NCBI GenBank assembly: GCA_031414955.1
Contig: JANOQV010000146.1
Location: forward strand, 1 to 64,000
From: Pedosphaera sp.
GTDB taxonomy: Bacteria > Verrucomicrobiota > Verrucomicrobiia > Limisphaerales > SIBH01
Direction: 5' to 3'
Length of the DNA: 64,000 nucleotides
Under the pieces are notes generated by a model, which saw only the letters and a list, made by a program, of their open reading frames with translations, searched no databases and was not told the origin of the DNA. This document shows, one piece after another, positions 8,289-49,075 of the stretch (position 1 is the stretch's first letter; every line of letters begins with the position of its first letter). The translations under genes and the position numbers were made by a program.

Positions 8289-8350
8289 AACTCAGCCGCG
8301 TAAATCTCTTTCTGAAACTCAAAACGATCCCCAACCCAAAGGACAAATCT

Positions 8351-9532: not shown

Positions 9533-9541
9533 GGCGGAATT

Positions 9542-20682: not shown

Positions 20683-20694
20683 GCACTGTTCCCA

Positions 20695-24656: not shown

Positions 24657-25069
24657 GGGACGAGCGCCTCACGCAAAGTCTTCGGCACCGGCGTCGGCGT
24701 GAGTTTCTCGCCCTCCCGACGCAGGCAGGCGATCTGTTGCTGTCCGCGGGCCATCAGTTCCTGCGTCCCGTTCTTTACCCGCCAGTATTCGAAGAGCAGC
24801 GTGATGCGGCTCTGGGTCAACTCGCCCAGCCTCATGCGAATGACCACTTCGTCGAAGGCGTAAAGCTCGGAGAGGTATTCGCACTGCACGCTGACGGTCG
24901 CCAGACTGAGGCCGCGCGACAACTCAGCGATGATGTCCGGCGCGTGATCGTGCAGAAACATCTCCCGCACGCGCCCCTGCCACGAGACGTGGTTCACGTA
25001 ATAGACGTTCCCGACGAGGTTGGTTTCCTCGAAGCTCACGATGTGACGGTGTTCGTAGGCGAGGCTCAT
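24641..25069 (-). CDS. Enediyne PKS-associated hotdog thioesterase (E10; SgcE10/CalE7/DynE7 family)
   Basis: YEHRH.V.FEETNLVGNVYYVNH..WQGR.RE.FL..HAP, GQQQIAC, PVP..L..AL.PY; directly downstream of pksE. Confidence 0.92.
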   Translation of the reverse strand: MSLAYEHRHIVSFEETNLVGNVYYVNHVSWQGRVREMFLHDHAPDIIAELSRGLSLATVSVQCEYLSELYAFDEVVIRMRLGELTQSRITLLFEYWRVKNGTQELMARGQQQIACLRREGEKLTPTPVPKTLREALVPYGTP

Positions 25070-25090
25070 GCGACGGGAAGACTGCGGGGA

Positions 25091-25231
25091 AAAACACCAA
25101 ACACAAAACGGCAAACACCAAAGAAACACCAAGCTCCAAACTTCAAACACCAACTGGCGGTCGAAAGGCTCGGGTTGGTGTCGGCGTTCTTGGAGCTTAA
25201 CTGATGTTTGATGTTTGGTGTTTGATGTTTC
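25091..25231. repeat. Inverted arrays of heptamer repeats (AAACACC/AAGCTCC ... GGTGTTT/GATGTTT)
   Basis: caccaaa-type tandem units on the left and tttgatg/tttggtg units on the right fill the pksE-E10 spacer. Confidence 0.8.
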
Positions 25232-28200
25232 ATTCCACGCACACCCCTACCACCATCGTCTCCTCCCGCTCCCGCCCCTTGGTCACTCCTGTCACGACCG
25301 TCCTCGTACCGCTCTGCATCGTGATCCAGCCATCGGGCTGGCGGTCGGCCAGCGTGAGCGGCGCGTCGGAGAGAGCGCCGGATTTCTTCAGGCATTCGAG
25401 CGCGGCCCAGACGCGCGTGGCGGCGGTGTCGAGGTCGCCGCCATTGGCGACCAGTTCGGCGAGGCGGAATCGTTCCGCGCCCAGCAGACCGCGCCAGGTC
25501 TCGGGTGTGCGCGCGGAAATCATTTCCATGTCGCAGCCCACGCTGCCGGTGCTGCTCATGGCCAGGGTCAGATCACCGGCCCGCGTGACGGAGAGATGGT
25601 TCCCGCCCGGCACCTCCGGCTTGCCATCCGCGCGATGATGGAGAGTCGCGTCGTCACCGAGCAGGCGGCGGACGCTCTCCTCGCTGCCTGCGCCGCGCGC
25701 CGCGCTCACCGAGATGCGGGCGGCCGGCAGCAATTCCTCCAGGCGGCGCTCGACGTACGGGCCGAACAAACCATCCGGCCACGCGCTGTCAGTGGACAAC
25801 TCCTCGACCTTGCGCAGGCGCAAGCCCTGCCAGGCCTCCAGCACCGCGCCGCCGGGACCGAGCAGTTCCAAATCGTATTCAAAGGTGTCGCCTTCGCGCT
25901 TCACTTCGCGCGCGTGCAGGAGCAGTTCCGGCAGGCAATCGCCGCTGTGCCACTGCTCCATTCGGCACGGCACCTCGCCCACCACGATGCGGCGCACGCC
26001 GACCGGCAGCAGCCGCGCGTGGGGGATGCAGGCCTGGATGGCGTGAATGGCGGCGTCGCGCACCGCGCCACAGCCGAGCACGCGTTCCTGCGGCAGGTAG
26101 CGGCCAAACCAGTCCGGCCCGATGTAAGGCGCGAGTTGCACCGCGCACTCCCGCGCCGTGAGCAGGCGATAGTTCAACACCCGGCGGAAACGTCCGGTGT
26201 GGAAGAGCAGCCGGTCGTAGAGGTCGCGTTCGATATCGAGCGCCGCGGCTGATCCTGGTGATCGGCCATCGGCCATCGGCCAATGGCTTTTCGTAGCGAC
26301 GAATTGTTGCGCGCTCCCTCCGAAGCGGCACACCGCTTTGAAATGATCCGCCTGAAAACCCGTCTGCTCGCAGCGCAGCGCGACTTCGATCACGCCCGAC
26401 TCGCGGACCAGCGCCGCGACGCGAATGACGTTCTTCCCGCCGCGCGGCACCACCACCGGACGAGACAGCTCGACGTTTTCAAAACTCGGCGGCTCGCTCG
26501 AACCAGCCAGGGCCATCGCCACCTGGGCCATCGCTTCCAGTCCCATCACCGCCGGGAACAGCGGCTCGCCGTGGAAGACGTGTTCATCGACATACGGATC
26601 GGAGTCGGACGAGAGCGTCGAGTCCACGATCAACTCCACGCCGGGATAAAAGACGCGCGTGTGTTCGAGGAACCGGCGGAAGGGCAGCTCCGGCTTGGTG
26701 AGATTCAGCGTCGGCATCTCGCCGAAGCGTCCGCTGATGACCACAGAAGTGGCTGGCAACTCGCGCCGCAAAAGCTCTTCGAGAATCTCCACGCCGGCCT
26801 CCGGTGAGATCGGCGTGATGCCCTGTTGACGCAACGATTCAATGCGCCCCAGCCGCGCGCCCATGCCCACGCCCGACCAGACGGACCACTCGGCGGCCAG
26901 GCAGCGGCAGCGCGGATGCGCGGTCTGGAATTCCTCGGTGAGTTGGGTAAGCCATTCGTTCGCGACGGCGTAGTCGGCTTCGCCCTGCAACCCGGCGCGT
27001 CCGATGATCGAGCCAAAGGTGACGAAGAGTCGAAGCTTCTCCGGGTCGAGAGCGGCGAGCACATGGCGCGCGCCGTCAATCTTCGGCGCCAGCGTGCGGC
27101 GGAAGGCCGTCTCGTCGAGCGTGCCGAGGAGTTGCGGGACGTTCGCGCCCGCCGCATGAATGAAAGCCGTGATCGTCCCAAGCTCGCGTTGCACTTCCGT
27201 GAGCGCCATCGTCACCTGCGTCTCATCGGTCACATCCGCCGCCACGTAACGCACGCGGACCTTGACGGCGGCGAAGCGCTCCAGGTTGGCCGAAAGCTCG
27301 GCATCAGTGGCGGGCTGCGAGCGTCCCATGAGCACAAGCCGCGCGCCGGACTTGCGCGCCAGGTGCAACGCGCACTCCGCCGCGATGCCCTTGCCGCCGC
27401 CGGTGACGAGCAGGAGATCGTCTGGACCAAGCGGCAACGCTCCGACACTTGCGGGAACCATCTCGCCTCGGTCGCCGAAAGGAAGAGCTTTCATCACCAA
27501 CTCATGCCGCCGCCCCGACTCGTCGTAGCGCACGTCGCGGTGACCGTGGGCAAGTGCGGATTCGCGCACGATCCACTCGACGGCTTGGGGATGCTGCGGC
27601 GGCAGTTCGAGGACGAGGGTGTGAATGGTCGGCGACTCAAGGTGTAGCGTCCGGGCCAAGCTGCCGGCCCGCTGGCCCGTTTGCACGAGCACGAACTTGC
27701 CCTCGCCGAGGGCAAGCGCGGCCTTCGCGCTGGCGAGCAGCAGCCTGATTTGAGCTGCTTCAATCCGGGGCGGCAGGCAGACGATCACGCCGGCGCCGGG
27801 CATCGAGGTGAGAGCAGGACGCAATGCCGCCGCCAGGGGATCGGTCTCGATGGCGAATACTTGCCATGCTGAACTTTGCCCTTCGTTTCGCGCGGACTCG
27901 GCGGTCCGCGCTCCAAGCGGTGCCTCGATCCATTCGCAGACGAACGGACGCACCCACGAATCAACTCCCGATGGAACGCGTTCCGTCTCATTGAGCGCCG
28001 CGCCACGATTGCGCGTGAGTTCTTCGAGCGCGGCGGCGGCCCGGCCCACCGTGGCCGTGGCGAAATCCGTGAGACCGATGAGGGGCGGCAGCCCCAACCG
28101 CTTCGCCGCCTCGGCCATGATCTGGCCCACGGAGATCGAATTGAGGTGCAAGTCTCCGAGCAGGCGGCTCTCGCTCGTGACCGTAGCCACGGGCAGTTCC

Positions 28201-31112: not shown

Positions 31113-31117
31113 GTGGA

Positions 31118-31172
31118 AAACTCCAAACTCCAAACTCCAATCTCCAAATAAACACCAAGCTCCAAGCTCCAA
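31118..31172. repeat. Heptamer tandem repeat (AACTCCA/AGCTCCA) upstream of the pksE start
   Basis: aaactccaaactccaaactccaatctccaaataaacaccaagctccaagctccaa; same family as the 25091 array. Confidence 0.8.
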
Positions 31173-31248: not shown

Positions 31249-32223
31249 TCATGTGGCAGGGACGGCGTTGGTTTGCACGGGGGCTTGAGTCTTTTTCTCG
31301 ACAGGTTGTGGCGACGGGAACTTGCCGAGCATATTCCAGATGTGCAGTGAGATTCCGCGAATGGCGCAGACGGTCACGAGGGCGAAGAAGAGGCCAAAGA
31401 CGAGGTGCATCACCTGGAGGACGCCATAGACCATCGCGACGGAGAAACCGAACAGCGCCTGACGCCAGGGATGAATGGGCGTCGTGGCCGGGTCGGGCAC
31501 CATGTAGAGCGTGAAGACAATGAAGGCCGCGCTGCTCATGGGCATGAGCGGCACGTAGAGCGGCGTGCCGAAATACCAAGCGCGTAACAGGCCTTGCAGC
31601 ACGAAGCCGAGAATCCACGCGCCGCAGAGCGGGAGCCGGCCGGTGAAGCAGCCGTGGATGATGATGCCCGTGAGGAGAATGAAAGCTGGAATGACCCAGT
31701 GCCAAGCGCCGGTGATATTCTCGGTGAAATGATACGGCGGGGCGAAGCCGACCTGCGGGAAGAGCAGCAGCGTGGCGGCGATGCCGAAGTTCGAGGGGTT
31801 GAAGATGTGCTGGTAGTGGCCGTTCCCGACGGGCGCGCGGAAGAAAACTTTGGACGCGATGGAGAGCACAACGGCGAAGGCGATAGGCCAGAGCACCTCG
31901 TTCGGGTAAAGCAACATGCCGCAGGCAAAGCCGGGAATGAGCGCGGGCGGCAAGGCGTTGAGAAATGCGCCAGGGCCACCGGTGAAGCGGGGCGCGCGGT
32001 TCTTCGCTTTGGCATCGACCCAGTCCAGGAGGAATTGCGCGAAGATAGCCGTGGTGATGGCGACGATGGGCGAGGCCCACGATTGCTCGAAGCCGAGGAG
32101 AGTGTGGCCAAGGATGTTCCACACGATCATCAGGATGACGAAGTACCAGAGCGCGATGAGGCGCAGCTTCGGATTCTTCTGCGGGTAGAAGAGGACGGTG
32201 GTGTTGAAGGCGGAGGATTTCAT
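31249..32223 (-). CDS. unbU: Enediyne biosynthesis membrane protein UnbU (E5; RnfD/NqrB-like)
   Basis: NILGH..LGFEQ, MLLY.N, H.FNPSNFGI, PPYHFTE, F.LYM..DP.TTP, H.VFGLFFAL; translationally coupled to unbV. Confidence 0.9.
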   Translation of the reverse strand: MKSSAFNTTVLFYPQKNPKLRLIALWYFVILMIVWNILGHTLLGFEQSWASPIVAITTAIFAQFLLDWVDAKAKNRAPRFTGGPGAFLNALPPALIPGFACGMLLYPNEVLWPIAFAVVLSIASKVFFRAPVGNGHYQHIFNPSNFGIAATLLLFPQVGFAPPYHFTENITGAWHWVIPAFILLTGIIIHGCFTGRLPLCGAWILGFVLQGLLRAWYFGTPLYVPLMPMSSAAFIVFTLYMVPDPATTPIHPWRQALFGFSVAMVYGVLQVMHLVFGLFFALVTVCAIRGISLHIWNMLGKFPSPQPVEKKTQAPVQTNAVPAT

Positions 32224-34196
32224 TTGGGCGAAGAAAATTGGGCAACCTGGGAATTCACCTTGCCGAGGCGCACGGTGTGCCAGCCGGGCCTGAGTCGCAG
32301 TTCGGTGCGCTGCGGTTGGCCGGCGAGGTCGCGCCATTTCAGTTCCACACGTACCGGTTGATTCGCATCCACGCGGCCGAGGCCGAGGTGAATGTCAGGA
32401 CTGCGGCGGCCCGAGTGACCGCTGCCGCCATCGATCTGACCAAGGACTTTTTTCCCGTTCGCCAGGTGCGCAATGGCTTGCGCGCCAAACGCGGGCCGCC
32501 CCGCCGTGTCCGCACCGGGATGGCCGGCACGTTCGAGCAGCGGTGAATTCGCAGCGTCGGCCAGTGGGAGCAACAGGTGCAGGCCGAGGAACGCGCCGGT
32601 GTTCGTGGACTCGTTGTGGAAGAAGAACGACGGCTCCCATTGGTTGGCGAAGGCGAAGTCGAGGCGTCCGTCGCCATCCACGTCCGCCAGCGCGATGCCT
32701 TTGCTGACCATCGGCTCGTTGAAGCCGACCTGCGTGGCGACGTCGTAATAGCGCCCATCGGCGGCGCGCACGAAGAACGGGTTGATGTCGTGGCCGCTCA
32801 GATCCGCGCCGGGCTTGAAGGTCGGCCACACGCGCGGGTCGTGGACGATTTTGCTGTTGCTGGTGCCGAGCGCCTGGAGTTCGGGCCAGCGGTTGATCTT
32901 GCCCTTGAGAAAGCCGACCGCCTGCATCGCCTCGACCGTGCCGTCGTTGTCGAAGTCGGCGAGGCGGCAGTCCCAGCCCCAGCCGCTGCGCGAAAGGCCG
33001 AGCTTCTCGCTGTTTTGGAAATAGGGCGCGAGGCCCGACTTCATTGCGTCGAGTTGCCCGGTGCTCTGCCAGAGGAAATGGCTTTCGGTCAGGCCGAACT
33101 CGGTGGCGATGTTGCTCACGTAGATGTCGAACAGTCCGTCGCCGTTCACATCGCCGAAGTCGCAGCCCATGCCCTTGAAGGAGTCGTGGCCGAGCACGCA
33201 GGACTTGGGCGTGGTGAAATCGCGCCGGCCTTCCAGTTCAGCGAACTCCAGATGACCGGGCTTGGAACGGTTGTGCATCAGCCGGTCGGGACCGAAGTCG
33301 TTGCCGAAATAAATCTCGGGCAACTGGTCGCCATCAAGATCTGCGACGCCGATGGCGAGCGTCCACCCGCGCGTGACTTCAGGGCGGAAGACATCCTTCT
33401 GCTCGGCGAAGCTCACGGCGGGCGCGGTGCCGGCTTTGGCAGACTGCCAGAGGAAGACGTGCTTGTAGCCGCCGTTTAAGGCCTTGGCCTTGCCCTCGTG
33501 CATCGTCTCCACGCCGGTGGCCTTGGCATCGAGAATGCGCGCGCCGTCCTGGAAGTAATTTCCAATGATGAGGTCGACGTGACCGTCGCCATCGAGATCC
33601 GTCTGCACCGCGCCATTGGAATACCAGCGCTCGCCGCTCGCCGTCAGCTCGGTTGCGGTGTAGCTCGTGCGGGCCAGCGCTGCGCCCGACACGTTGCGCA
33701 AATAAATCACCGGGGTGCGGCCCCAGAAATAGACGAGCACGTCGGGCAGACCATCCTCGTTGAAGTCCCCGGCGAGAGCGCCCATCGGTGCGGTCGTGGC
33801 GGCGTCGAACGGCAGCGGAGCCGCGTCGAGAGCGAAGGGCGTGTAACGATTCCCGGTGCCAGGCGCGGGCGCGACGGTCACGAGATCAGTGCGCGGATCG
33901 ATGTGGATGAGATCGTTCGGCAGCCCGTCATCGTCGAGATCGGCGAAGGTCGCCCCGGCGCCGAGCGAGGAGATCCAGGCCGAGATGCGCGCCAGGCTCG
34001 GATGCACGGCGCGGACGCTCTTGTAGGGCGGATGGTTGGCGACCTCGGCCAGCGGGAGCTTGTGGAACTTGAAGCGCGCGGCCAGTTGCGCGGACTCGGT
34101 GGACGTGATTTTCGGATACTGCGTGGCGGCGTACAGTCCGAGCACCAGGGCGAGACCGGCGAGGCTGGCGGCGTAATGGCGAACTCCGTTCTTCAT
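32220..34196 (-). CDS. unbV: Enediyne biosynthesis protein UnbV (E4; CRTAC1/ASPIC, FG-GAP repeats)
   Basis: VHPSL..ISAWISS.GA, DLDxDG/DFNxDG repeats, NDFGPDRL, GHDSFKGMG, RWPELQ, DGGSGHSG.RS..HLGLG ASPIC/UnbV C-terminus. Confidence 0.92.
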   Translation of the reverse strand: MKNGVRHYAASLAGLALVLGLYAATQYPKITSTESAQLAARFKFHKLPLAEVANHPPYKSVRAVHPSLARISAWISSLGAGATFADLDDDGLPNDLIHIDPRTDLVTVAPAPGTGNRYTPFALDAAPLPFDAATTAPMGALAGDFNEDGLPDVLVYFWGRTPVIYLRNVSGAALARTSYTATELTASGERWYSNGAVQTDLDGDGHVDLIIGNYFQDGARILDAKATGVETMHEGKAKALNGGYKHVFLWQSAKAGTAPAVSFAEQKDVFRPEVTRGWTLAIGVADLDGDQLPEIYFGNDFGPDRLMHNRSKPGHLEFAELEGRRDFTTPKSCVLGHDSFKGMGCDFGDVNGDGLFDIYVSNIATEFGLTESHFLWQSTGQLDAMKSGLAPYFQNSEKLGLSRSGWGWDCRLADFDNDGTVEAMQAVGFLKGKINRWPELQALGTSNSKIVHDPRVWPTFKPGADLSGHDINPFFVRAADGRYYDVATQVGFNEPMVSKGIALADVDGDGRLDFAFANQWEPSFFFHNESTNTGAFLGLHLLLPLADAANSPLLERAGHPGADTAGRPAFGAQAIAHLANGKKVLGQIDGGSGHSGRRSPDIHLGLGRVDANQPVRVELKWRDLAGQPQRTELRLRPGWHTVRLGKVNSQVAQFSSPK

Positions 34197-35140
34197 CGGG
34201 TGATCTTTTTTCCGTTGGAGAAATTCTTCTGAATGCGCCGCCGCCAGACTTCAAACGCCGGTTCGTCGCCACTGGCGGGAAGGTTTTCCAGCGCGGCATC
34301 GGTCAGGGCGGAGGCGTCCGCGCTCGACATGCCGCAGAGCGCCCAGCAGGCGCGGTCAGCGTAGGGCGTGGGATTGCCGGCGTGATGCCGGGCCTTGGCG
34401 GCGAAGGCCGCGCCCTGGGCGAGTTGCGGATGGAATTTTCCGGCGGCGGCGACCAGCGACTTGAGTTCCTCCTCGCTCACTTCGCCGGCGTAAACGCTCG
34501 CGAGTCCCACGCCACTCCACAAATCAGCGCGGCGCGATTCAGCGAATCCGTTGATGGTCGCCGCCACTCGCGCAACCTCCGCGCCCTCGATGAACCACAG
34601 GCTCCGGCCCAATCCTTGATCGAACACCCGTTCCGCGTAGCCGCTGATGCGCTTCGGGCGCGGGCCGTCGTTCAGATACTTCGGCCAGTGGAAGAAACCT
34701 TCGTGGAAGCCGTAGCCGTCGATGACCAGCCAGCGGAGCAACGGGTCGAGGGACTGCATCTGCTTCTCGATCCGGCCCGGCAAACGCGCCGCCGCCCAGC
34801 CGATGGCGACATGCACCATGTAGGTGTGGGCGTCGCCGGGACCGGCGAGGAACTGCCGCACGCGATCCCGCCGCCACGGGGTGAGGCGATCCAGAATCGC
34901 CAGGGCCATGGCCGCGCCTTCATAGGCGAAGCCGCGTTCGGTCGCGGCGATGGAGTCCAGGCGCGGAACGAGGAAGGCATGGTCGGCGTTCTCCAGGGCG
35001 GCGTGGTATCCGGCCACGAACGTCGCGCCGACCTGCTCGATGCGTTCGCGGCGTCCATTCTCACCGCCGCGAAAACCGCGTCGCGCGAAAGTTGTTTCAA
35101 CTTCCGAAAGGCCGAACATGAGTTTCAGGATCGCGCCCAT
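34193..35140 (-). CDS. unbL: Enediyne biosynthesis protein UnbL (E3; DUF1702)
   Basis: F.RRGF, RGFAYEGAAM, H.YM.HV.IGWA, WL..DGYGFH, DQG.GRSLWF, DLWSG.GLA..YAG, AQGAAFAA; start MGAILK. Confidence 0.92.
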   Translation of the reverse strand: MGAILKLMFGLSEVETTFARRGFRGGENGRRERIEQVGATFVAGYHAALENADHAFLVPRLDSIAATERGFAYEGAAMALAILDRLTPWRRDRVRQFLAGPGDAHTYMVHVAIGWAAARLPGRIEKQMQSLDPLLRWLVIDGYGFHEGFFHWPKYLNDGPRPKRISGYAERVFDQGLGRSLWFIEGAEVARVAATINGFAESRRADLWSGVGLASVYAGEVSEEELKSLVAAAGKFHPQLAQGAAFAAKARHHAGNPTPYADRACWALCGMSSADASALTDAALENLPASGDEPAFEVWRRRIQKNFSNGKKITR

Positions 35141-35203
35141 AAAAGGCTTTTTCTTCGTGTTACGAGTCTGGTTATCGCATTTGCCAAGACCCATGCCGAG
35201 CAA

Positions 35204-35234
35204 GAAAAAGACCGGGATTGCTCCCGGTCTTTTC
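35204..35234. terminator. Intrinsic (probably bidirectional) terminator after the giant gene
   Basis: aaaagaccggga-ttgc-tcccggtctttt hairpin with A/T tracts on both sides. Confidence 0.8.
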
Positions 35235-35264
35235 TGATTCATTCCATTTCCACCAAGCGCCCGC

Positions 35265-38200
35265 CTACGGGCAGATGACGCGGTAGAATTTGTTCACGCC
35301 CGGTTCGACCGGCAGCGTGACGCCGGAGGCTCCCGGAACATCCGTCCACACCGTGGTACCAGGCCCGCTTAACGCCGTGGTGCATTGCAGGCGGAAGCCG
35401 GTGCCGGTCCACGAGATGGTCACGCTGGTGCCATCAGGCGAACGCGTGATGGCAAGGGACGCCGGTCCGACGCACGGCGATCCCGGCACGTTGAGGTGCA
35501 TGGACGCCGGGCCACTGACGGCGGGACTCCAGTTCTGGCCGCCATCGAGGCTGATCTCCGTGAAGATGTCGAAGAAGCTGCCGATGCGGTAGGGCGCGCC
35601 GGTGGGCGAGGTACGAATGCTGGTGCGGCCCAAGGAAGCCTTGCTCGGACTTTCACGGACCATCACTCCGTTGGGCAGGCTGCCGCCGCTGATGTTCAAG
35701 GCCAGCATCTCGGTGTCAAAGAAGCGGGTGTCGCCGCTGTCCTGACTGCTGGTAACCCGCGTCGTGACGGCGGCTGGAGCCGTGACATGAATCGGCTGCT
35801 GGCCGCCCTGGTGCAGATCAAATGTCACCATGGAGCCGAAGCCGTGAGTCACGCTGCCACCTGGAGGAGGCGGAGGCGAGTTGGTCAGGAATCGCTCATG
35901 GCTGGCGTTGCTGATGATGATGCCATTGGCGTAGAGCTGGTGCCACTGCTGCGGGCTGATGTACTGCCCGTTGAGCGGCGGCAGATTAGGAGTGGAGGCC
36001 GGCTGCTCAGGCGCTTCGCAGATCAGCTCCACATGGGCGGCGGCGGGCACGGGCGCCCAGTTTTGGCCGCCGTCCAGGCTCAGTTCGACGAAGACATCAA
36101 AGAAGCTGCCGATGCGGGACGTGCCATCAGACTGCGGCGCGATGGCCGTGCCGCCATGTGATTGGCGGGTCGGACTTTCGCGCAAGCGGATGCTGGGCGG
36201 CAGGTCGCCACCCTGAATGTCCAGTTGCAGCATCTCGGTGTCATAGACTTGAGTGCCGTCGGACTCGGTGCCGCGGTGGCGCACGCTCACCTCTACTTGT
36301 GCCGGCGCGCGCATGGGAACGAAGTTCACTCCACCGTCCTGCGACACCTCCATGTCCACCTGCGACCCAAAGGTGTGCGTCTGGGACGAGCCCGGGGGCG
36401 GCGGCGGCAGCGATTGGGTGAAGAACTTGTGCTTCACGTCACGGATGACGATGCCCTGGGCGGTCAGAATGTGGTAGAGCGCCGGACTCACGTAGAGGTC
36501 ATTGGGCGGCGGCAGCAGTTGCGTGCCTGCCGGTACGGAAGGTACGGTCAGTGGGTCGCGGCCCAGTTGGACTGGCGCGGCCTCCTCACCGGGCGACCAA
36601 GTTGCGCCGCCATCCAGGCTGAGTTCTGTGAACACGTCGAAGAAGCTGTCGATCATGAAGCCTCCGCCGGGCGCGGACTGCACGGCCGTGCGTCCGATCG
36701 AGGCCCGGGTCGGGCTTTCCCGAATCATGAGGCCGCCGGGGCTGCTCAGGTTGAGCGCCAGCATCTCGGTGTCATAGACCTGCGTGCCGCTTGGCTCAAC
36801 GCCCACATGCGTCACCTGCACCGTCACATCCGCCGCGCCCGCCAGCGGGGACCAGGTCTGCCCGCCGTCCGACGATACCTGCCCGGAAACTTGCGAGGGG
36901 AAGGTGTGGATCTGGCTGCCGCCCGGGGGCGGCGGCGGGAAGCTCTGCAGGAAGCGGCGATGGCTCACGTTGCTGATGATGATGCCGTTGGCGTAGAGCT
37001 GATGCCACTGCTGCGGCGAGACGTACTCACCCTGCTGCGGCGGCAGCAGAGGCGTCGGGAACCAGCGCGGTTTGCGCGGGCGCACTGTCACCGTGAAGCT
37101 GCAACTGGCGCTGCCGTTCACACTACTGGCGGTGCAGGTCACCGTGGTGGTTCCGACCGGGAAGTTGCTTCCACTGGGCGGCGTGCAGGAGTAAGTCACC
37201 GGCGCGCCACATGTATCCACCGGCCCCACCGTCGGGGCGAAGGTCACGACACGGCCCGCCGGCGTGAGGGCGAAGGCTGTGATGTTGGCCGGGCAGACGA
37301 TGAGCACCGTGCAGGGCACTGGGTTCGGCACCACATGGACGTTGGCCGGACCGGTCAGCGAGGGCTGCCAGGTCTGTCCGCCGTCCGCGCTCAACTCCGT
37401 AAAGATGTCAAAGAAGCTGGCCACACTGTGTGTGCCGTCGGCTGCGCTGGTGCGAATGCTGGTGCGGCCCAGCGAGGCCTTGCTCGGGCTTTCGCGCACC
37501 ATCATGCCGACGGGCAGGCCACCGCCGCTGATGTTGAGCGCCAGCATCTCGGTCTCGAAGAAGCGGGTGTCACCGTCGCTCTGCATTTCGCGCACGCTCA
37601 CCGTCACCTGGGCGGGCAGGGTGGTGTGCTGCCACGTCGTCCCGTTGTTGAGCGAGAGGTCGCACTCCACGTCCGATCCGAAGCTGTGCGTCTCAGTCAC
37701 GCCCGGGGGCGGCGGCGGGAAGGACTGGGTGAAGTGTTTGTGGCTCACGTTGCTGATGATGATGCCCTGGGCGTAGAGCGCGTGCCACTGCTGCGGGCTG
37801 ATGTACTGCCCGTTGAGCGGTGGCAGATTGGGATTGGGCACCGGCATGGGCGGAGCTTCGCAGATCAGTTCCACGCGGGCCGGGGTCGGCGCAGGGGTCC
37901 AAGTTTGGCCACCGTCCACGCTCAGATCCACGAAGATGTCGAAGAAGCTGCCGATGCTGTGCCCGTTGGGCGTCGGGGCGATGACCGTGCCGCCTTGCGA
38001 GGCGCGGGTCGGGCTTTCACGGAGCATCACTCCGACCGGTAGATCGCCACCCTGCAGATCCAGTTGCAGCATCTCAGTGTCATAGAGCTGAGTTTCATCG
38101 GGCGCAGTGCCGCGGTGTTGCACATGGACTGCCACCGCCGCCGGGGCACGCCGGGGCTGGAAGGTCTGGCCACCGTCGAGGCTCACTTCCATGTCCACTT

Positions 38201-41200
38201 GCGAACCAAAGGTATGCATCGCTCCCGGACCGGGCGGGGGCGGCGGCTGGCTTTGGGTGAAGAACTTGTGCCGCACGTTGCGGATCTGGATGCCCTGGGC
38301 GAGCAGCAGGTGATACTGCTGCGGCGAGACATACAGATCATTGGGCGGCGGCAACAACTGGGTCGAGGCCGGGATCGGCGTGATGGTCCGCGGGTCAGTC
38401 CGCAACTCTACCTGCGCCGCCTCCTGGGCGGGCGACCAGTTCGCCCCGCCATCCAGACTGAGTTCCGTGAAGACGTCGAAGAAGCTGTCGATGGCAAAGC
38501 CACCGCCCGGCGCGGCCTGCACAGTGGTGCGGCCAGTCGAGGCGCGGGTCGGGCTTTCACGGATCATGAAGCCACCGGGGCTGGCCAGATTGAGCGCCAG
38601 CATCTCGGTGTCATAGAGCTGAGTGCCATCGGGATCGGTGCCCACATGCGTGACCTGCACCGTCACATCCGCCGGGGCCGTGGCCGGGGTGAAGGTCGTG
38701 CCGCCATCTGTTGACAACAGCAATTCCACGGTCGATCCGAACGAATGCGTTTCCGACGTGCCGGTTGCGGGCGGCGGGAAGCTTTGCAGGAAGTGGCGGT
38801 GGCTCACGTTGCTGATGATGATGCCATTGGCGTAGAATTGGTGCCATTGCTGGGGCGAAATGTACTCACCCTGCGGCGGCGGCAGCAACGGCGTCGGGAA
38901 CCAGCGCGGCTTGCGGGCCCGCACCGTCACCGTGAAGGAGCAGGTGGCGCTCTGGCCACAGCCGTCCGTGACCACACAGGTCACGGTCGTGGTCCCAACC
39001 GGGAAGGGCGATCCGCTGGGCGGATTGCAGACCACGTTGAACGGCGCACAGCCTCCACTCACGATCGGAGCCGGGTAATTGACGACAACTCCGGCCGCAG
39101 TGGGCGCGGTCACGCTGACGTTTGGCGGACAGGCGATGGCCAGCGGCGGGGGCGGGTTGGTCGGAATGTTGAGTTGCACGGAGACGGGGCCGCTCACGGC
39201 GGGACTCCAAGTGGCCCCGCCATCAAGACTGATTTCCGTGAAGATGTCGAAGAAGCTGGAGACGCGGTAGTCGCCGGGCGTGGTGCGGATGCTGGTGCGT
39301 CCAAGCGATTGTTTGGTCGGGCTTTCCCGGAGTTGGACGCCCCCTGGCAGCGCGCCTCCGCTAATGTTGAGGGCGAGCATCTCGGTGTCGAAGAAGCGCG
39401 TGCTGCCGCTGTCGAGGCTGCTGCTCACCTGAGCGGTCACACTGGCGGGCGCAGTCACATGCGCCGGGGGTTGGCCCGGCTGGAATAAATCGAAAGTGAC
39501 CATCGACCCGAAGTTATGAACCTGCGATCCGCCGGGCGGCGGAGGCGGCTGGTTCTGGGTGAACCGATCATGGCTGGCATTGCTGATGATAATGCCGTTG
39601 GCGTAGAGCTGATGCCACTGGTCGGGCGAGACGTATTCGCCGTTGAGCGGCGGCAGGTTGGGCGTGGGCACCGTTTGTTCGGCGGCCGGGTTGACGAGTT
39701 CCACATGGGCCGGGGCCGGGGCCGGGGTCCAGCTTGCGCCTCCGTCCAGGCTCACTTCCACGAAGATGTCGAAGAAGCTGTGGATGCGATGTGTGCCATT
39801 GGTGTTGGGCGCGATGGATGTTCCACCGATGGACTGCTTGGTCGGGCTTTCCCGGATCAGCAGCCCCGGTGGCAGGGCGCCTCCGCTGAGATCCAGTTGC
39901 AACATCTCGGTATCGAAGCTTACCCCGTCGTTGCCGGACGAACCGATGTTGTGGACCCGGACCGTCACAGCGGCGGGCGCGCGCACGGCGGAGAAGGACA
40001 GCCCGCCATCAGTCGAGAGCATCATGTCCACCTGCGAATCGAAGGTGTGCGTGTTGGTCCCGCCCAGGGGCGGCGGCGGCTGCGAACCAGTGAAGAAGCT
40101 GTGGCTCACGTTGCTGATCACGATGCCGCTGGCCAGCGCCAGATGGTAGTCCTGCGGACTGACGTAGGCGCCATTGGGCGGCGGGAGGTCGCCCGTGGGC
40201 ATGTCCACCGGCGGGACGGTGGTCGGATCCTTGCGCAGTTCAACGTGCGCGGCCTGCGCGGCGGCGCTCCAAGTGGCACCTCCATCCAGGCTGACCTCGG
40301 TGAAGATGTCGAAGAAACTGATCATGCAAACATTGTCGGGGTTATTCCCGAAACCGGTCCCGCGGATGATGACCAGACCGGGTGAAGCCAGGGTCGGGCT
40401 TTCGCGCAACCGGATGCCGGGCGGCAGGTTGCCTCCGCTGATGTCGAGTTGCAGCATCTCGGTGTCAAACGTCCGGACCTGACCCGTCCCGGGTTGGGCA
40501 TAGACGCTGACGCTGACCGCCGCGGGCGCGCTCACGCTTTGGAAACTCAGGCCGCCATCAACGGAGATTTCGCAATCCACCTGCGAGTCGAACTCATGCA
40601 CCTGAATGGTGCCGGGCGCGGGCGGAGGCGTGCTCTGGGTGAAGTAGCGATGCTTGGGACTGCGGATGATGATGCCGTTGGCATAGAGCTGATGGTACAG
40701 TTGCGGGCTGATATACATGCCGTTGGTCGGCGGCAGCCCGTCGTCGTTGAAGGGAATGTCCGGAATCGGCGGACGGACGGTCACACTGAACGAGCAGTTG
40801 GCGCTGCCACCACAACCGTCCGTGACCACACAGGTCAAGGTCGTCGTCCCGATCGGGAAAGGCGAGCCGCTGGGCGGAACGCAGACCACGCTGACCGGCG
40901 CACAACCGCCACTGACGGCGGGGGGTGGGTAGTTGACGACGGCTCCAGCCGCAGTGGGCGCGATCACAGTCATGTTCGGAGGGCAGGTGATGGCCAGCGG
41001 CAGCGGCGGATTGTTCGGGATGTTGAGATGCACGGAGACAGGGCCGCTGACGGCCGGACTCCAAGTTGCGCCACCGTCGAGGCTCATCTCGGTGAAAATG
41101 TCGAAGAAACTGCCGACACGGTAGTCGGTGGGAGTGGTGCGGATGCTGGTCCGTCCGAGCGACGCCTTGCTTGGGCTTTCGCGCACCATGATGCCGCCGG

Positions 41201-44200
41201 GGGCGCTGATGTTCAGGGCCAGCATCTCGGTGTCGAAGAAGCGAGTGGAACCGGAATCCTGACTGCTGCTCACCTGCGTGGTCACGCTGGCCGGGGCCGT
41301 CATGGGCACGGGTGCCTGGCCCTGCTGGATGAGATCGAAATGCACCATCGACCCGAAGTTATGAACCTGCGATCCGCCGGGGGGCGGCGGCGGCTGGCTC
41401 TGGGTGAACCGGTCATGGCTCGCGTTGCTGATGATGATGCCGTTGGCGTAGAGCTGGTGCCAGCGCTCGGGCGAAATGTATTCGCCATTCAACGGCGGCA
41501 GGTTCGAGTTGGTGGCTGGCTGTTCGGGCGCGGGCATGACCAGTTGCACATGGGCCGGAGCCTGAGCCGGAGACCAGTTCTGGCCACCGTCCAAACTCAC
41601 TTCCACGAAGATGTCGAAGAAGCTGCCGATGCGCAGCAGATCGAAGTCGGGATCGCCAATGGGCACGCCTGAGGCTGCGATGGATGTTCGACCGCGCGAG
41701 GGCAACGTCGGGCTTTCGCGGAGCCTCACCGCAGGCGGGAGATCGCCGCCCTGAATGTTGAGCGAGAGCATTTCGGTGTCGAACGTGCCTCCGGTCGTGC
41801 CGTCCACCCGCACCTCGACGCCGGCCGGGGCGCGCACGGACTGGAAGGTCGCGCCGCCATCGAACGACAAATCCATGTCCACCTGCGAATTGAAGGTGTG
41901 AATTGCCGTCCCACCCACGGGCGGAGGCGGTTGCGAATGAGTGAAGAAGCTGTGGCTCACGTTGCTGATGACCACGCCTTGGGCGGTAAGGATGTGGTAA
42001 TCCGCCGGGCTGACGTAGGCGCCATTGCGCGGAGGCAAATCGCCGGTGGGCGCGCTGACCGGCGGGGTCAGGGTGACGTCCCGCCGCAGCTCGACATGGG
42101 CCGGTTGCAGAGCCGGGCTCCAACTCGCGCCGCCGTCCAAGCTGAGTTCAGTGAAGACGTCGAAGAAGCTCGAGATCATGAATCCTCCCGGCGCGGTGCG
42201 CATGGTGGTGTGGCCGGGCGAAGGCAGCGTCGGGCTTTCGCGAATTATCACGCCCACCGGCAGGGTGCCGCCAGCGATATCGAGTTGCTGCATCTCGGTG
42301 GCAAACTGCTGGGTCGGCCCGCCAGGAGTGTGGGTCACCTGCACGGCGACACCAGCCGGCGCGGTGTGACGCACAAAATTAGAGCCACCATCGGTCGAAA
42401 TATCCATCGAGACCGACGAGCCAAAGGTATGGACCTGAACCGTGTTCGGCGGCGGCGGCGGCGTGGATTGGGTGAACTTGTTGTGGCTGATGTTGCTGAT
42501 GATGATCCCGTTCGCGTAAAGCTGGTGATACAGCGCCGGGCTGATGTACGTGCCGGTCGGCGGGGGCAGGTTCGGCGTAGGGAAGAAGATTTCCGGCGCG
42601 GGCGGAACCGGTGGATTGACCGTCACGTTGAACGAACAGGTGGCGCTGCCACCGCAGGTGTCGCTGGCGGTGCAATTCACCGTCGTCGTGCCCAGCGGGA
42701 ACGGCGAACCGCTGGGCGGAGAGCAAACCACCGTCGGCGGAGTGCAGCCGCCACCCACGGTGGGCGGGGGATAATTTACCACCGTACCGGCTGCTCCATT
42801 CACCGTCACGTTGGCCGGGCAGGCGATGGTGACGGGAGGCGGGCCGCCCAAGGTGGTCACGCTGACCGAAGCCGGGCCGGAAAGCGACGGGTGCCAGGTC
42901 GCGCCGCCATCCAAGCTAAGTTCGACGAAAATATCGAAGAAACTGGAGATGCGATAATCGCCAGGAGCGGCCTGCCGGATGCTAGTCTTGCCCGTGGACG
43001 CCTTGGTGGGGCTTTCACGAATCATCATGCCTGGAGGCAAACTGCCGCCGTTGAGATTCAATTGCAGCATCTCGGTGTCGAAGAAGCGCGTCGTCGCCGT
43101 GTCCATCGTCGTGCTGCTGACATTGACCATCACGTTCGCCTGGGCGGTGACCGGATTGAAGGTGACGCCACCATCCATCGAGACCTGCATCTGCACGGCT
43201 GAACCGAAGGCGTGGGGCTGGCTGCCGCCGGGCGGCGGTGGCGGTTGGTGCTGAAGGAAGTCCAGGTGGCTCACGTTGGTGATGTAAATGCCCATCGCGA
43301 AATACGCGTGCCAGTCCTGGGGACTGACGTACTGGCCAGCCGGCGGGAGGTCGGGACTGGTGAACGGTTTCTCCGGTGCCTTGCTGCGCAGTTCGACATG
43401 CACCGGGCCGTTGGTCGCGGGATTCCAAGTGCCGCCGTTATCCAAGCTGACCTCGGTGAAGATGTCGAAAAAGCTCGCGATTTTGAAAGTGCCGTCCGGC
43501 ATCGGTATCACGCGTGTCCGGCCGCGGGACGGCTCGGTTGGGCTTTCGCGCACCATCACCCCAAGAGGCAGGTCGCCGCCCGAGAGGGAAAGTGCGGTCA
43601 TCTCCGTGTCGTAAGTGCCTGATCCCGCATCCGCCACGGTCACGGTCACCGGGGCCGAGACGCGAGCGGCCGTAAAGGTGACGCCACCATCGAGTGAAAT
43701 ATCCATGTCCACCGTGGAGCCGAAGTTTTCGGTGTTGGTTCCACCGGGTAGTCCAGTATTGCCTCCGGCCGGGTACGACTGAAGGAATCCGCTGTGGCTG
43801 ACGTTGCTGATCACGATGCCCACGGCGTAGAGCGCGTGCCATTGGTCAGGGGAGACATATTGGTCGTTCGGCGGCGGGAGCAGATCCGTGGGTTCGTCCA
43901 CCGGCGGAGCGGTGATGGATTTCTTCAGCTCAACATGCACCGGCGTAAGGGCGGGACTCCAGTTCGCGCCGCCATCCAGACTGACCTCGGTGAAGATGTC
44001 GAAAAAGCTGCCAATCATGTAACCACCAGCCAGAGAGCGCACGGTGGTTTGGCCGGTCGAAGCGAGGGTTGGGCTTTCACGAATCATCACCCCCGGCGGC
44101 AGCGAGCCTCCTTGGATGTCGAATGATTGCATTTCCGTGGCGAAGAAATCCTTGCCCAGCACAGTGCCGATATGACCGACGCCGACCACCACCGCAGCGG

Positions 44201-45470
44201 GGGCGGAGACGGTCTGGAATGTCACGCCGTTGTCGGCGGAAATCTGGAAGGTGGCCGTGGAATTGAATGGATGCGAATTGGAAAGTCCCGGTCCCGGCGG
44301 GCCGTAGAGGACGTTGCTGATGCCGGGGTTGACGAAGCGATCATGACTGGAATTGCTGATGATGATGCCGTTGGCGTAGAGCTGATGCCACTGGGCCGGG
44401 CTGACGTATTCGCCGGCCGCCGGTGGCAGGTTGTTGGTCAAGGTAAACACTTCCGGGCCGCCCGGTTGGAGCACTTGAATCGTGAAGGAGCAATTCGCCG
44501 TCTGGCCGCAGGTATCACTCGCAGTGCAGTTCACGGTGGTCGTGCCGATGGGGAAATTGGCACCGGTCGGCGGGACGCAGGAAATGGTCGGAGGCGTGCA
44601 GCCGCCGCCCGCTGAAACGAAGAAACCCACCGTGGCACCGCCGGGACCGGTTCCGGCCACGGTCAAATTGGGCGGGCAGGTGATGTTGACAGGCGGATCG
44701 ATGATTTGCGCGAAGCGGACACCATCAAACCACCCGCCGCCAAGCTGCGTTCCCAGTCCCGGGCCAAGGATCACAGTGTCATAGGTGTCAACCGCCGCGC
44801 CGTTGAACGTCCGGGAAAGAATTCCGTCCACATAGAATTTAATCGTTGATCCGGGGGGCAGAACCTCAATGTCGAAGCGATGCCAACCGATCGAGCGATT
44901 GGGCGAACCAGCGCCGTTAAGGTTGAAAACTCCAGTTGTGCCGGCGGCAGCGGGTCCAAAGGCGACACGCCCTTGGTATTTCGTTGCGGTAAAAACTTCC
45001 CCCGTAAGAGTCGTGGCATTGAATTTTCCGGCCGCGATCAGGGCGTCCAGGCTGCCGCTGGCCACTGTGCCGCCGTTAGGCAGTCCTGAGCCTCCGGAGT
45101 GGCCTCTTATTTCGTTGTACGCGCGCGTGGCTCCGACCGTTCCCCCATTGGTCCCTTCGTCATAGAAGTAGAAGGTGAAGAGCAAGTGCCCCCCGAACTC
45201 GCCGCCCAGATTTCGGTGCATGCGGTCGATGGACGTGTTCATGAAGGCGCTGCGTATGCCGCCGCCCGGCACCACGTTGGTGGGCGTGGAAATATCGAGA
45301 GTGTTCGCGGTGGTGACAGTCCAGTTACCGACGGGGAACAGGATTTGGCCGCTCTCGAAATCATCGGAGAAGACGATGTTGGTCACGCTGGCCGCACTGG
45401 CCGCGCTACACAGGGACAACAGGAGGCACAAGGAGAGTACGCGCCTTGCCGCGAAGAGATTTTTACTCAT
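35265..45470 (-). CDS. Giant secreted repetitive protein: N-terminal domain, (HYR + 3 x ~175-aa repeat) x5, short C-terminal FYR domain
   Basis: Signal peptide ending ASA-A; five HYR-like units (CP.N.TV..C.PPSGS.FP.GTTTV.C...CSF.VTV); 15 repeats ending SFFD(I/V)F.(E/D).S.D.G..W; C-terminus W...FRLQCTT.L..WTDV..KFYRV. Confidence 0.9.
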   Translation of the reverse strand: MSKNLFAARRVLSLCLLLSLCSAASAASVTNIVFSDDFESGQILFPVGNWTVTTANTLDISTPTNVVPGGGIRSAFMNTSIDRMHRNLGGEFGGHLLFTFYFYDEGTNGGTVGATRAYNEIRGHSGGSGLPNGGTVASGSLDALIAAGKFNATTLTGEVFTATKYQGRVAFGPAAAGTTGVFNLNGAGSPNRSIGWHRFDIEVLPPGSTIKFYVDGILSRTFNGAAVDTYDTVILGPGLGTQLGGGWFDGVRFAQIIDPPVNITCPPNLTVAGTGPGGATVGFFVSAGGGCTPPTISCVPPTGANFPIGTTTVNCTASDTCGQTANCSFTIQVLQPGGPEVFTLTNNLPPAAGEYVSPAQWHQLYANGIIISNSSHDRFVNPGISNVLYGPPGPGLSNSHPFNSTATFQISADNGVTFQTVSAPAAVVVGVGHIGTVLGKDFFATEMQSFDIQGGSLPPGVMIRESPTLASTGQTTVRSLAGGYMIGSFFDIFTEVSLDGGANWSPALTPVHVELKKSITAPPVDEPTDLLPPPNDQYVSPDQWHALYAVGIVISNVSHSGFLQSYPAGGNTGLPGGTNTENFGSTVDMDISLDGGVTFTAARVSAPVTVTVADAGSGTYDTEMTALSLSGGDLPLGVMVRESPTEPSRGRTRVIPMPDGTFKIASFFDIFTEVSLDNGGTWNPATNGPVHVELRSKAPEKPFTSPDLPPAGQYVSPQDWHAYFAMGIYITNVSHLDFLQHQPPPPPGGSQPHAFGSAVQMQVSMDGGVTFNPVTAQANVMVNVSSTTMDTATTRFFDTEMLQLNLNGGSLPPGMMIRESPTKASTGKTSIRQAAPGDYRISSFFDIFVELSLDGGATWHPSLSGPASVSVTTLGGPPPVTIACPANVTVNGAAGTVVNYPPPTVGGGCTPPTVVCSPPSGSPFPLGTTTVNCTASDTCGGSATCSFNVTVNPPVPPAPEIFFPTPNLPPPTGTYISPALYHQLYANGIIISNISHNKFTQSTPPPPPNTVQVHTFGSSVSMDISTDGGSNFVRHTAPAGVAVQVTHTPGGPTQQFATEMQQLDIAGGTLPVGVIIRESPTLPSPGHTTMRTAPGGFMISSFFDVFTELSLDGGASWSPALQPAHVELRRDVTLTPPVSAPTGDLPPRNGAYVSPADYHILTAQGVVISNVSHSFFTHSQPPPPVGGTAIHTFNSQVDMDLSFDGGATFQSVRAPAGVEVRVDGTTGGTFDTEMLSLNIQGGDLPPAVRLRESPTLPSRGRTSIAASGVPIGDPDFDLLRIGSFFDIFVEVSLDGGQNWSPAQAPAHVQLVMPAPEQPATNSNLPPLNGEYISPERWHQLYANGIIISNASHDRFTQSQPPPPPGGSQVHNFGSMVHFDLIQQGQAPVPMTAPASVTTQVSSSQDSGSTRFFDTEMLALNISAPGGIMVRESPSKASLGRTSIRTTPTDYRVGSFFDIFTEMSLDGGATWSPAVSGPVSVHLNIPNNPPLPLAITCPPNMTVIAPTAAGAVVNYPPPAVSGGCAPVSVVCVPPSGSPFPIGTTTLTCVVTDGCGGSANCSFSVTVRPPIPDIPFNDDGLPPTNGMYISPQLYHQLYANGIIIRSPKHRYFTQSTPPPAPGTIQVHEFDSQVDCEISVDGGLSFQSVSAPAAVSVSVYAQPGTGQVRTFDTEMLQLDISGGNLPPGIRLRESPTLASPGLVIIRGTGFGNNPDNVCMISFFDIFTEVSLDGGATWSAAAQAAHVELRKDPTTVPPVDMPTGDLPPPNGAYVSPQDYHLALASGIVISNVSHSFFTGSQPPPPLGGTNTHTFDSQVDMMLSTDGGLSFSAVRAPAAVTVRVHNIGSSGNDGVSFDTEMLQLDLSGGALPPGLLIRESPTKQSIGGTSIAPNTNGTHRIHSFFDIFVEVSLDGGASWTPAPAPAHVELVNPAAEQTVPTPNLPPLNGEYVSPDQWHQLYANGIIISNASHDRFTQNQPPPPPGGSQVHNFGSMVTFDLFQPGQPPAHVTAPASVTAQVSSSLDSGSTRFFDTEMLALNISGGALPGGVQLRESPTKQSLGRTSIRTTPGDYRVSSFFDIFTEISLDGGATWSPAVSGPVSVQLNIPTNPPPPLAIACPPNVSVTAPTAAGVVVNYPAPIVSGGCAPFNVVCNPPSGSPFPVGTTTVTCVVTDGCGQSATCSFTVTVRARKPRWFPTPLLPPPQGEYISPQQWHQFYANGIIISNVSHRHFLQSFPPPATGTSETHSFGSTVELLLSTDGGTTFTPATAPADVTVQVTHVGTDPDGTQLYDTEMLALNLASPGGFMIRESPTRASTGRTTVQAAPGGGFAIDSFFDVFTELSLDGGANWSPAQEAAQVELRTDPRTITPIPASTQLLPPPNDLYVSPQQYHLLLAQGIQIRNVRHKFFTQSQPPPPPGPGAMHTFGSQVDMEVSLDGGQTFQPRRAPAAVAVHVQHRGTAPDETQLYDTEMLQLDLQGGDLPVGVMLRESPTRASQGGTVIAPTPNGHSIGSFFDIFVDLSVDGGQTWTPAPTPARVELICEAPPMPVPNPNLPPLNGQYISPQQWHALYAQGIIISNVSHKHFTQSFPPPPPGVTETHSFGSDVECDLSLNNGTTWQHTTLPAQVTVSVREMQSDGDTRFFETEMLALNISGGGLPVGMMVRESPSKASLGRTSIRTSAADGTHSVASFFDIFTELSADGGQTWQPSLTGPANVHVVPNPVPCTVLIVCPANITAFALTPAGRVVTFAPTVGPVDTCGAPVTYSCTPPSGSNFPVGTTTVTCTASSVNGSASCSFTVTVRPRKPRWFPTPLLPPQQGEYVSPQQWHQLYANGIIISNVSHRRFLQSFPPPPPGGSQIHTFPSQVSGQVSSDGGQTWSPLAGAADVTVQVTHVGVEPSGTQVYDTEMLALNLSSPGGLMIRESPTRASIGRTAVQSAPGGGFMIDSFFDVFTELSLDGGATWSPGEEAAPVQLGRDPLTVPSVPAGTQLLPPPNDLYVSPALYHILTAQGIVIRDVKHKFFTQSLPPPPPGSSQTHTFGSQVDMEVSQDGGVNFVPMRAPAQVEVSVRHRGTESDGTQVYDTEMLQLDIQGGDLPPSIRLRESPTRQSHGGTAIAPQSDGTSRIGSFFDVFVELSLDGGQNWAPVPAAAHVELICEAPEQPASTPNLPPLNGQYISPQQWHQLYANGIIISNASHERFLTNSPPPPPGGSVTHGFGSMVTFDLHQGGQQPIHVTAPAAVTTRVTSSQDSGDTRFFDTEMLALNISGGSLPNGVMVRESPSKASLGRTSIRTSPTGAPYRIGSFFDIFTEISLDGGQNWSPAVSGPASMHLNVPGSPCVGPASLAITRSPDGTSVTISWTGTGFRLQCTTALSGPGTTVWTDVPGASGVTLPVEPGVNKFYRVICP

Positions 45471-48700: not shown

Positions 48701-49075
48701 GGCAAGCCGGTGATAGGCCTGCGCCAGAGCACTGGAGATGGCGTCGCTGGGGCCTTCGCGCTGCTGGATGGAGAGGAATTCATCGATGGCCTCCTCGAAG
48801 CGGCGTTGCAGCAAGTGCTCGTAACCGTGAAATGGAATCAGCCCGCGCTGGTTCAAGCCCGCGATACGCGGAATGTGGAAGCGATGAATGGCGTAGAGAA
48901 AGAACAGCGCCCGCACTCGTTCGTAAAGATTCTCCGAACGGCGGCGGAACTCATCCAGCGCCGTTCCTTCGGCCAGCAGTTGTACGAGCGAAACACCTTG
49001 GCAGATCGCGTCCAGCGATTGATTGCGCACCGCCGGATCGCTCGCGGTAATGATCTCCGTCAGCCGGCTGCTCAT
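45743..49075 (-). CDS. Bifunctional GHMP-family sugar kinase / UDPGP-family sugar-1-phosphate nucleotidyltransferase
   Basis: GHMP motifs [40 protein letters not shown]-family motifs [29 protein letters not shown]. Confidence 0.8.

Follow-up and report, generated by a model that had tools for sequence, protein, structure and literature searches.

A 15-fold array of predicted DynF-related barrels encoded beside an enediyne-type polyketide synthase cassette in Pedosphaera sp.

A giant repeat protein and the cassette it adjoins

The first 64,000 nucleotides of contig JANOQV010000146.1 from the verrucomicrobial Pedosphaera sp. (GenBank assembly GCA_031414955.1; hereafter, the window) contain a giant gene at positions 35265..45470 of the minus strand, which starts with ATG, has zero internal stops and encodes a protein of 3401 amino acids (aa). 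The product begins with a hydrophobic segment that resembles a signal peptide by eye in the translation (residues 1-26, 45393..45470), followed by a domain of 230 aa without a Pfam match (residues 27-257, 44700..45392), which is common to this protein, its orthologue at locus L001 and three others (P0037, P0147 and P0075). The remainder is built of HYR domains, whose bounds are approximate, and barrel units located by motif scan: HYR 1 (44460..44693) and units 1-3 (residues 345-873, 42852..44438), HYR 2 (42600..42836) and units 4-6 (41019..42578), HYR 3 (40767..41000) and units 7-9 (39165..40745), HYR 4 (38916..39146) and units 10-12 (37326..38894), and HYR 5 (37077..37310) and units 13-15 (35487..37055). 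A C-terminal tail of about 65 aa (35268..35468) ends in an F-Y-R motif; it is related to the tails of four other large open reading frames (ORFs) of the same genome and is a probable sorting domain. All of these parts lie on the minus strand. Pfam HYR (PF02494) was found in five stretches, at 112.9 bits against a cut-off of 21.7, with one HYR before each triplet, and the domain order reads HAAAHAAAHAAAHAAAHAAA. An earlier note, made by a model from the sequence alone, had described five blocks of a Cys-containing HYR-like spacer plus three units directly upstream of an enediyne cassette; the ORF, Pfam and motif scans bear this out. Matches of the whole protein to Reelin, CHB_HEX_C, Mo-co_dimer and Tli3 were discarded, as they comprise summed short motif matches with 0 passing stretches. 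At third codon positions, the G+C content of the gene is 0.79, and that of its neighbors 0.77-0.82.

Unit starts and unit ends each number 15 in the motif scan. The 15 copies of the earlier note thus stand; its length of ~175 aa is a little too long, the trimmed units measuring 164-174 aa (~167 aa), with pairwise identities of 47-85%. A hidden Markov model built from the 15 units recovers each copy at E<=1.3e-70. The conserved core comprises TEM, RESP, S-x-G and SFFD-x-F-x-E-x-S-x-DGG-x-x-W, and E95, R113, E114, S115, S120, S137, D140 and E144 are invariant or near-invariant polar residues. Most units had also been credited with three His and one or two Asp-box-like motifs; indeed, all three aligned His columns are filled in 14 of the 15, and two Asp-box-like motifs are present in 10 units and one in the other 5. 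Because 34 of 38 HYR-to-HYR runs are triplets (counted over overlapping loci and representative sets, this protein included) and the nearest unit in another protein has the matching triplet position for 102 of 111 units, the HYR-spaced triplet is, on these comparisons, a real module.

The giant gene lies directly upstream of unbL-unbV-unbU-pksE-TE on the same strand. The five-gene cassette E3/E4/E5/E/E10 is defined in PMC5181780, and the minimal enediyne genes E3, E4, E and E10 are clustered here. They encode UnbL/E3 (DUF1702; 34193..35242, with a likely start near 35140; Pfam E 4e-114), UnbV/E4 (32220..34196; Pfam FG-GAP plus ASPIC/UnbV), a PksE-type iterative polyketide synthase (PKS; 25230..31172, KS-AT-KR-DH by Pfam) and the thioesterase (TE) E10 (24641..25153, Pfam 4HBT_2). 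At the UnbU/E5 position, matching that in an annotated cluster, is a membrane protein with a weak NQR2/RnfD match (31249..32337). The ACP and PPTase domains of PksE were undetected by Pfam, and no further check was made. Convergent on this minus-strand cassette is a plus-strand gene for an MMPL/RND exporter of the HAE3/HpnN-like kind (21858..24656), preceded by two MacB/FtsX-type ABC permeases (19540..21855, plus strand); such a permease pair adjoins two other cassettes as well.

Kinship of the unit with DynF

Apart from the Asp-box motif, single units match nothing in Pfam, NCBIfam or the PDB sequences. The S-x-D-x-G-x-T-W hairpin common to sialidases, sortilin and reelin gives rise to Pfam BNR matches; identity with a BNR/Asp-box propeller was rejected, since these matches cover only ~12 residues and the model (below) is a long-stranded barrel in which the motifs are strand turns. 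Nor do the units match DUF6073 (PF19550; 0 of 15 at E<=5, and none elsewhere among the proteins of this genome) or DUF6004, whereas sister and intermediate subtypes in like proteins do. The earlier note could not assign the unit to a characterized family. That statement needs correction: through intermediates, profile comparisons allow the unit to be assigned to a superfamily comprising DynF, DUF6073 and DUF6004. DynF is a protein of the dynemicin cluster of Micromonospora chersina (PDB 6UBL), described in PMC8725005 as a novel fold without functional precedent.

Barrel-carrying proteins contain sister subtypes B, C and D, which have TEM...SFFD in common with the unit. Subtype B aligns to the unit profile by HHalign at 98.7%, and 7 of 20 B domains match DUF6073 weakly; with the broad subtype-B profile (A4) the DynF match is lost, and the narrow one gives DynF at E 0.48 only. 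The link from the unit to DynF therefore required a further, intermediate subtype, A6, which carries RESP too. The unit profile (A2) aligns to A6 at 99.5% (HHalign, E 1.4e-22, 77 columns), and DynF is the sole significant PDB sequence match of the A6 profile (E 1.2e-5). Moreover, 5 of 8 A6 members exceed the DUF6073 cut-off, several match DUF6004 (PF19467) weakly, and two further A6 relatives are named "DUF6073 family protein" by NCBI. DUF6073 and DUF6004 are both leads for the unit in the ESM Atlas (0.80-0.83). With high confidence, then, the unit is judged homologous to DynF, transitively via these intermediates.

The AlphaFold2 model of unit 9 (39165-39665), built with 149 sequences, is all-beta, with a predicted local distance difference test score (pLDDT) of 97.6 and a predicted TM-score of 0.89; across the 149 sequences, hydrophobic and polar residues alternate at strand positions. 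The unit is thus predicted to be an eight-stranded antiparallel up-down beta-barrel. In VIA-align, the native-order unit has eight-stranded up-down barrels on top (PagL, Z 10.7; avidins, ~8.8), and DynF is aligned at Z 6.1 with a root-mean-square deviation (rmsd) of 3.7 over 137 residues. In Foldseek, DynF is the sole listed high-probability row (0.96), and its TM-score of 0.47 is the best among those listed. Three unit-9 copies given to a complex predictor scored 0.00, a result outside that predictor's calibration. In the Pfam, AlphaFold and Foldseek comparisons proposed in the earlier note, no confident match to an adhesin or to a pocketless carbohydrate-binding fold emerged.

The unit's first two strands appear to correspond to the last two of the DynF-order subtypes. 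The C-terminal 124 columns of the unit align to positions 15-127 of 117 intermediate-subtype domains (99.4%). The N-terminal PP-x-x-x-x-Y segment aligns to the C-terminal counterpart in the DynF-order intermediate subtype, a weak match (score 11.0; shuffles averaged 2.5 and 1 of 100 reached the score), with eight other slices scoring 0-6.8. When the natural stretch from unit 8 into unit 9 is taken starting at the third strand, and hence in DynF strand order, it aligns over 148 columns. Its model (pLDDT 90) places DynF first both in Foldseek (probability 1.00, E 0.017) and in VIA-align (Z 9.7, the next being 8.7; rmsd 3.3, 122 aligned), with model residues 1-131 superposing on DynF 26-169. In unit numbering, residues ~38-167 correspond to DynF 26-169, colinear strand order holding only for the six C-terminal strands, and the structure-based identity is 12-14%. 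We hold with moderate confidence that the unit is circularly permuted by two strands relative to DynF. The native unit boundary was kept because the first strands of the following unit lie outside the DynF alignment in the unit 8 to unit 9 model.

The likeness to DynF therefore consists of a predicted eight-stranded up-down barrel, transitive homology and encoding within a cassette for an enediyne PKS (PKSE). DynF itself is a single 211-aa domain, forms a dimer and belongs to the anthraquinone-fused enediyne cluster of an actinomycete; in contrast, the giant protein, from a verrucomicrobial order, repeats the domain 15 times and has HYR spacers, a signal-like start and a tail at its C-terminus.

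Distribution beside cassettes and exporters

At E<=0.001 the unit profile retrieves 2395 representatives, and 464 at 1e-30 (clusters at 50% identity). A genome scan confirmed 333 stretches, of which the best 80 make up 67 loci, a set biased to close relatives. Carriers extend from single domains with PEP-CTERM-like or IPTL-CTERM tails to proteins as long as 4872 aa, whose tails are of the type IX secretion system (T9SS)-like or F-Y-R kind. With zero matches to the unit profile among 400 genomes of the phylum, the domain is rare. None of three profiles matched in four actinobacterial cassette regions of 41 kb each, two tblastn searches of plasmids returned no useful match, and a DUF6073/DUF6004 scan of three Streptomyces plasmids was without a match, with no positive control giving a signal.

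The earlier note had proposed asking whether the domain co-locates with pksE, and it is enriched there. Among the 67 loci, pksE lies within the 10-kb flanks in eight (L001, L004, L008, L011, L015, L022, L025 and L060), from records of Verrucomicrobiota, Bacteroidota, Ignavibacteria and Planctomycetales; an MMPL gene is in the flanks of L006, L010 and L011. In an even draw of 300 other genomes from the same order, 18 match the unit profile, 10 have DUF1702 and 10 have the MMPL of the window (E<=1e-100). Against the 18 of 300 overall, the barrel domain is present in 7 of the 10 DUF1702 (unbL) genomes (Fisher 9e-8) and in 9 of the 10 with the MMPL subfamily (Fisher 1e-11), both values being overstated by kinship; several of the genomes with overlaps had also supplied loci to the unit profile. 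The seven genomes with both DUF1702 and the barrel belong to seven different families of the order, and in five of them the cassette contig carries the matching gene. In the other two (G507 and G698), the profile-matching gene is not on the cassette contig, and a subtype-D gene stands directly before unbL. In two DUF1702 genomes without a barrel match (G481 and G584), the contigs end inside the cassette. The MMPL gene directly adjoins a barrel gene in G541, G560, G576, G591, G665 and G698 and on contig C54 of the window's own genome. Although enriched, the pairing of barrel and pksE does not hold throughout, and within the order sample the barrel is tied at least as strongly to the MMPL exporter.

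Several individual loci deserve mention. The closest orthologue, at L001, has 12 units and the shared N-terminal domain, and its pksE product is 68% identical to that of the window. A 3816-aa frame between the thioesterase side of a cassette and the MMPL gene (L011:7088-18535, G541) carries subtypes D and A, twelve B barrels and six HYR-like domains. At L071, a single-domain PEP-CTERM barrel protein is encoded in front of unbL, and at L070:6142-9393 (G481) that place is taken by another large protein, glycine-rich in its repeats and, by eye, ending in a tail like that of an intramolecular chaperone. Contig C54 encodes the second barrel protein of the window genome (G000:C54:16422-24451, L086), a 1655-aa frame directly downstream of an MMPL paralogue that is 52% identical to the MMPL of the window; it combines subtypes D and A with LamG-like and Ig-like repeats (by eye) and an F-Y-R tail, and no pksE is on that contig. 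Reduced cassettes, in which DUF1702 is followed directly by pksE without UnbV and UnbU in between, occur at L001:11782-18581, L008:3308-10871, L060:275-7953, L082:6785-14588 and L084:5609-12740, with a barrel gene adjacent in four of the five. At L073:4046-5467 (G591), a gene resembling an outer-membrane beta-barrel (weak OMP_b-brl) lies between unbU and pksE and is a possible exit route. Three cassettes have, after the thioesterase, an AraC-like regulator recognized by eye (L073:11829-12857, L076:1174-2001 and L079:220-1107).

Upstream of the giant gene, 45743-49917 (minus strand) encodes an NTP transferase and a protein of 1110 aa that resembles fucokinase in one region and matches UDPGP at its C-terminus; both are probably unrelated to the cassette, because in the loci checked such genes are not near a cassette or barrel gene. 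On the plus strand, 5772-10240 encodes in one run an M43 metallopeptidase with a dockerin and TSP3 repeats, an unassigned secreted protein and a cohesin-domain protein, possibly a cohesin-dockerin pair, and 61100-63139 encodes 679 aa with thioredoxin-like, weak cytochrome c, copper monooxygenase C-terminal and EF-hand matches.

A candidate exported carrier and its alternatives

We put at about 0.5 the probability that the giant protein is a multivalent exported sink or carrier, either for the polyene or polyyne of the cassette or for another MMPL cargo. This reading starts from the observed architecture, predicted fold, chain of homology to DynF and co-occurrence of genes. The array and the signal-like N-terminus, the latter recognized by eye, favor the multivalent extracellular scaffold of the earlier note, and its speculation about a carrier or acceptor for the PksE product is strengthened by the unit's remote kinship with DynF, a protein crystallized with palmitate in a closed hydrophobic cavity (PMC8725005). 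We infer that the barrels bind ligand. In the proposed mechanism, PksE and the thioesterase would make a linear polyene, as actinobacterial pairs of these enzymes do, UnbL, UnbV and UnbU may modify it, and the MMPL/RND protein, possibly assisted by the MacB pair, would move the product out of the cytoplasmic membrane. The full cassette is reportedly a source of iodinated polyynes (Gui et al. in 2024). If expressed and exported, the array would be the outside acceptor of the neighboring pathway, with 15 DynF-type barrels, each burying one linear hydrophobic molecule in its cavity, arranged in threes with HYR Ig-like domains as spacers. Actinobacterial PKSE/TE pairs yield pentadecaheptaene, and long polyenes dissolve poorly and are unstable (PMC9992847). 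The barrels would take up such a chain, shield the insoluble, unstable product and concentrate it at or beyond the cell surface.

Two known arrangements are comparable. MMPL/RND lipid exporters can have a dedicated lipid-binding partner, as with HpnN, BstA-BstB-BstC and MmpL-LprG. Here, too, an HAE3/HpnN-like MMPL is repeatedly found beside a presumably exported protein with a predicted hydrophobic pocket, but the partner fold differs and is multimerized. Chromoprotein apoproteins are ~110-aa single Ig-like sandwiches that bind a finished nine-membered enediyne 1:1, whereas the giant protein has 167-aa up-down barrels in a 15-fold array and no homology to them was found; they are absent among the fold and sequence matches listed for the unit. 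The analogy is functional: aponeocarzinostatin and CagA of C-1027 are secreted, cluster-encoded proteins that shield a labile PKSE-derived molecule (PMC2694159), and the giant gene has their traits of a signal-like N-terminus (by eye) and a place in a PKSE cluster, adjoining unbL.

A number of observations weigh against the carrier. On the structural side, the native-order unit ranks DynF just 41st by Z, behind generic barrels such as PagL, and neither model's Foldseek search has a match at E<=0.001. DynF co-expressed with SgcE/DynE7 kept palmitate, not heptaene (PMC8725005). At the locus, a terminator-like hairpin of 13 bp lies between the giant gene and unbL (35205..35234, minus strand; -22 kcal/mol, z -2.9); a consensus promoter and terminator scan of 34900-35500 found nothing, the hairpin included, and a similar hairpin exists in L071 and none in the 41-bp gap of L001. 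In the survey, 11 of the 50 domain-bearing genomes taken from the 67 loci had a detected pksE and 39 had not, and in the order sample 8 of the 18 domain-bearing genomes had one, all counts on drafts in which misses are not absences. Loci without pksE are flanked by mixed housekeeping genes (109 of 183 flanking ORFs scanned). Finally, the unit profile goes unmatched in G634, a genome 95% complete and with a full cassette; the 22.7 kb examined there likewise contain no match.

The low pksE counts are what would be expected of a general-purpose surface or secreted scaffold, such as an adhesin, a lipid scavenger or a surface-layer part, that binds ordinary lipids or surfaces and came to lie near pksE by traveling with it in an island. 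The size of the family and its single-domain and T9SS-tailed forms fit this too, as do the HYR spacers and variable copy number, which are typical of surface proteins; moreover, none of six same-genus genomes has the barrel domain, DUF1702 or the MMPL, consistent with gain in one block. We nevertheless consider such a scaffold somewhat unlikely. Beside the cassette, seven families of the order as well as other phyla have subtypes A, B or D, in architectures of 1 to 16 domains and in varying positions (upstream of unbL, after the TE or beside the MMPL). This pattern suggests that the pairing arose repeatedly, not that a single block was inherited. In addition, the nearest relative of solved structure belongs to an enediyne pathway.

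That same kinship could instead point to enzymes that finish the pathway outside the cytoplasm, by elimination, isomerization or cyclization of a polyene or polyyne, as DynF and Sgd15 may. A lyase role is said to have been proposed for the DynF orthologue TnmF. Sgd15, another orthologue, is essential for sungeidine, with no intermediates detected upon its inactivation (PMC8725005). The set of invariant or near-invariant polar residues from E95 to E144 would suit a catalyst, allene oxide cyclase, the AbnU/PloI4 Diels-Alderases and pyocyanin demethylase are found further down among the fold matches, at Z 5.8-6.7, and in the 28 window proteins scanned Pfam detects neither a P450 nor a flavin reductase. 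Still, fifteen similar copies per chain would fit stoichiometric binding better than catalysis, DynF is without an arginine at the RESP position in its alignment with A6, and many carriers lack a detected pksE; catalysis is an unlikely role. As for the metal-or-hydrophobic-ligand suggestion of the earlier note, the hydrophobic half accords with the fold, and a metal scaffold using the three His per unit is quite improbable. These His are nearly constant in the giant protein, His32 and His50 lie near one end of neighboring strands in the model's secondary structure, and His50 would be in register with the hydrophobic face, but in units from other proteins all three occur together in just 21 of 136 (singly in 27, 46 and 51) and the conserved family core is without His. 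By these alignments the three His are clade-specific, not a family-wide feature.

Beyond the single locus, the carrier reading can be extended to Gram-negative-type bacteria of multiple phyla, in which MMPL would hand a PKSE polyene or polyyne to surface-displayed, permuted DynF barrels. Such an array, without kinship to the actinomycete apoproteins, would act either as a cell-attached multivalent chromoprotein or as an enzyme that completes the product outside the cell. On this view, DynF would have been recruited from a large superfamily of barrels that are exported and handle lipids. This extension is possible, though doubtful. DynF and the cassette were already known; what appears new is the exported, tandem or permuted DynF relatives and the link to PKSE and MMPL, for which no description turned up in the literature searched (subscription papers and supplements being outside that search). 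DUF6073 and DUF6004 receive no mention in the same literature. According to PMC10308959, enediyne-type PKS genes are common in phyla without a reported enediyne, and non-actinobacterial enediyne KS genes are known, without a reported product. The present analysis places DynF in a large superfamily of at least four subtypes, typically export-tailed and one of them apparently circularly permuted, and finds DynF-type barrels recurring beside non-actinobacterial PKSE cassettes and one specific MMPL subfamily. Small expressible domains, such as the L071 single-domain PEP-CTERM protein, could serve as affinity traps for the cassette product. Two questions thereby become testable: what role DynF-type barrels have, and what these cassettes make and export.

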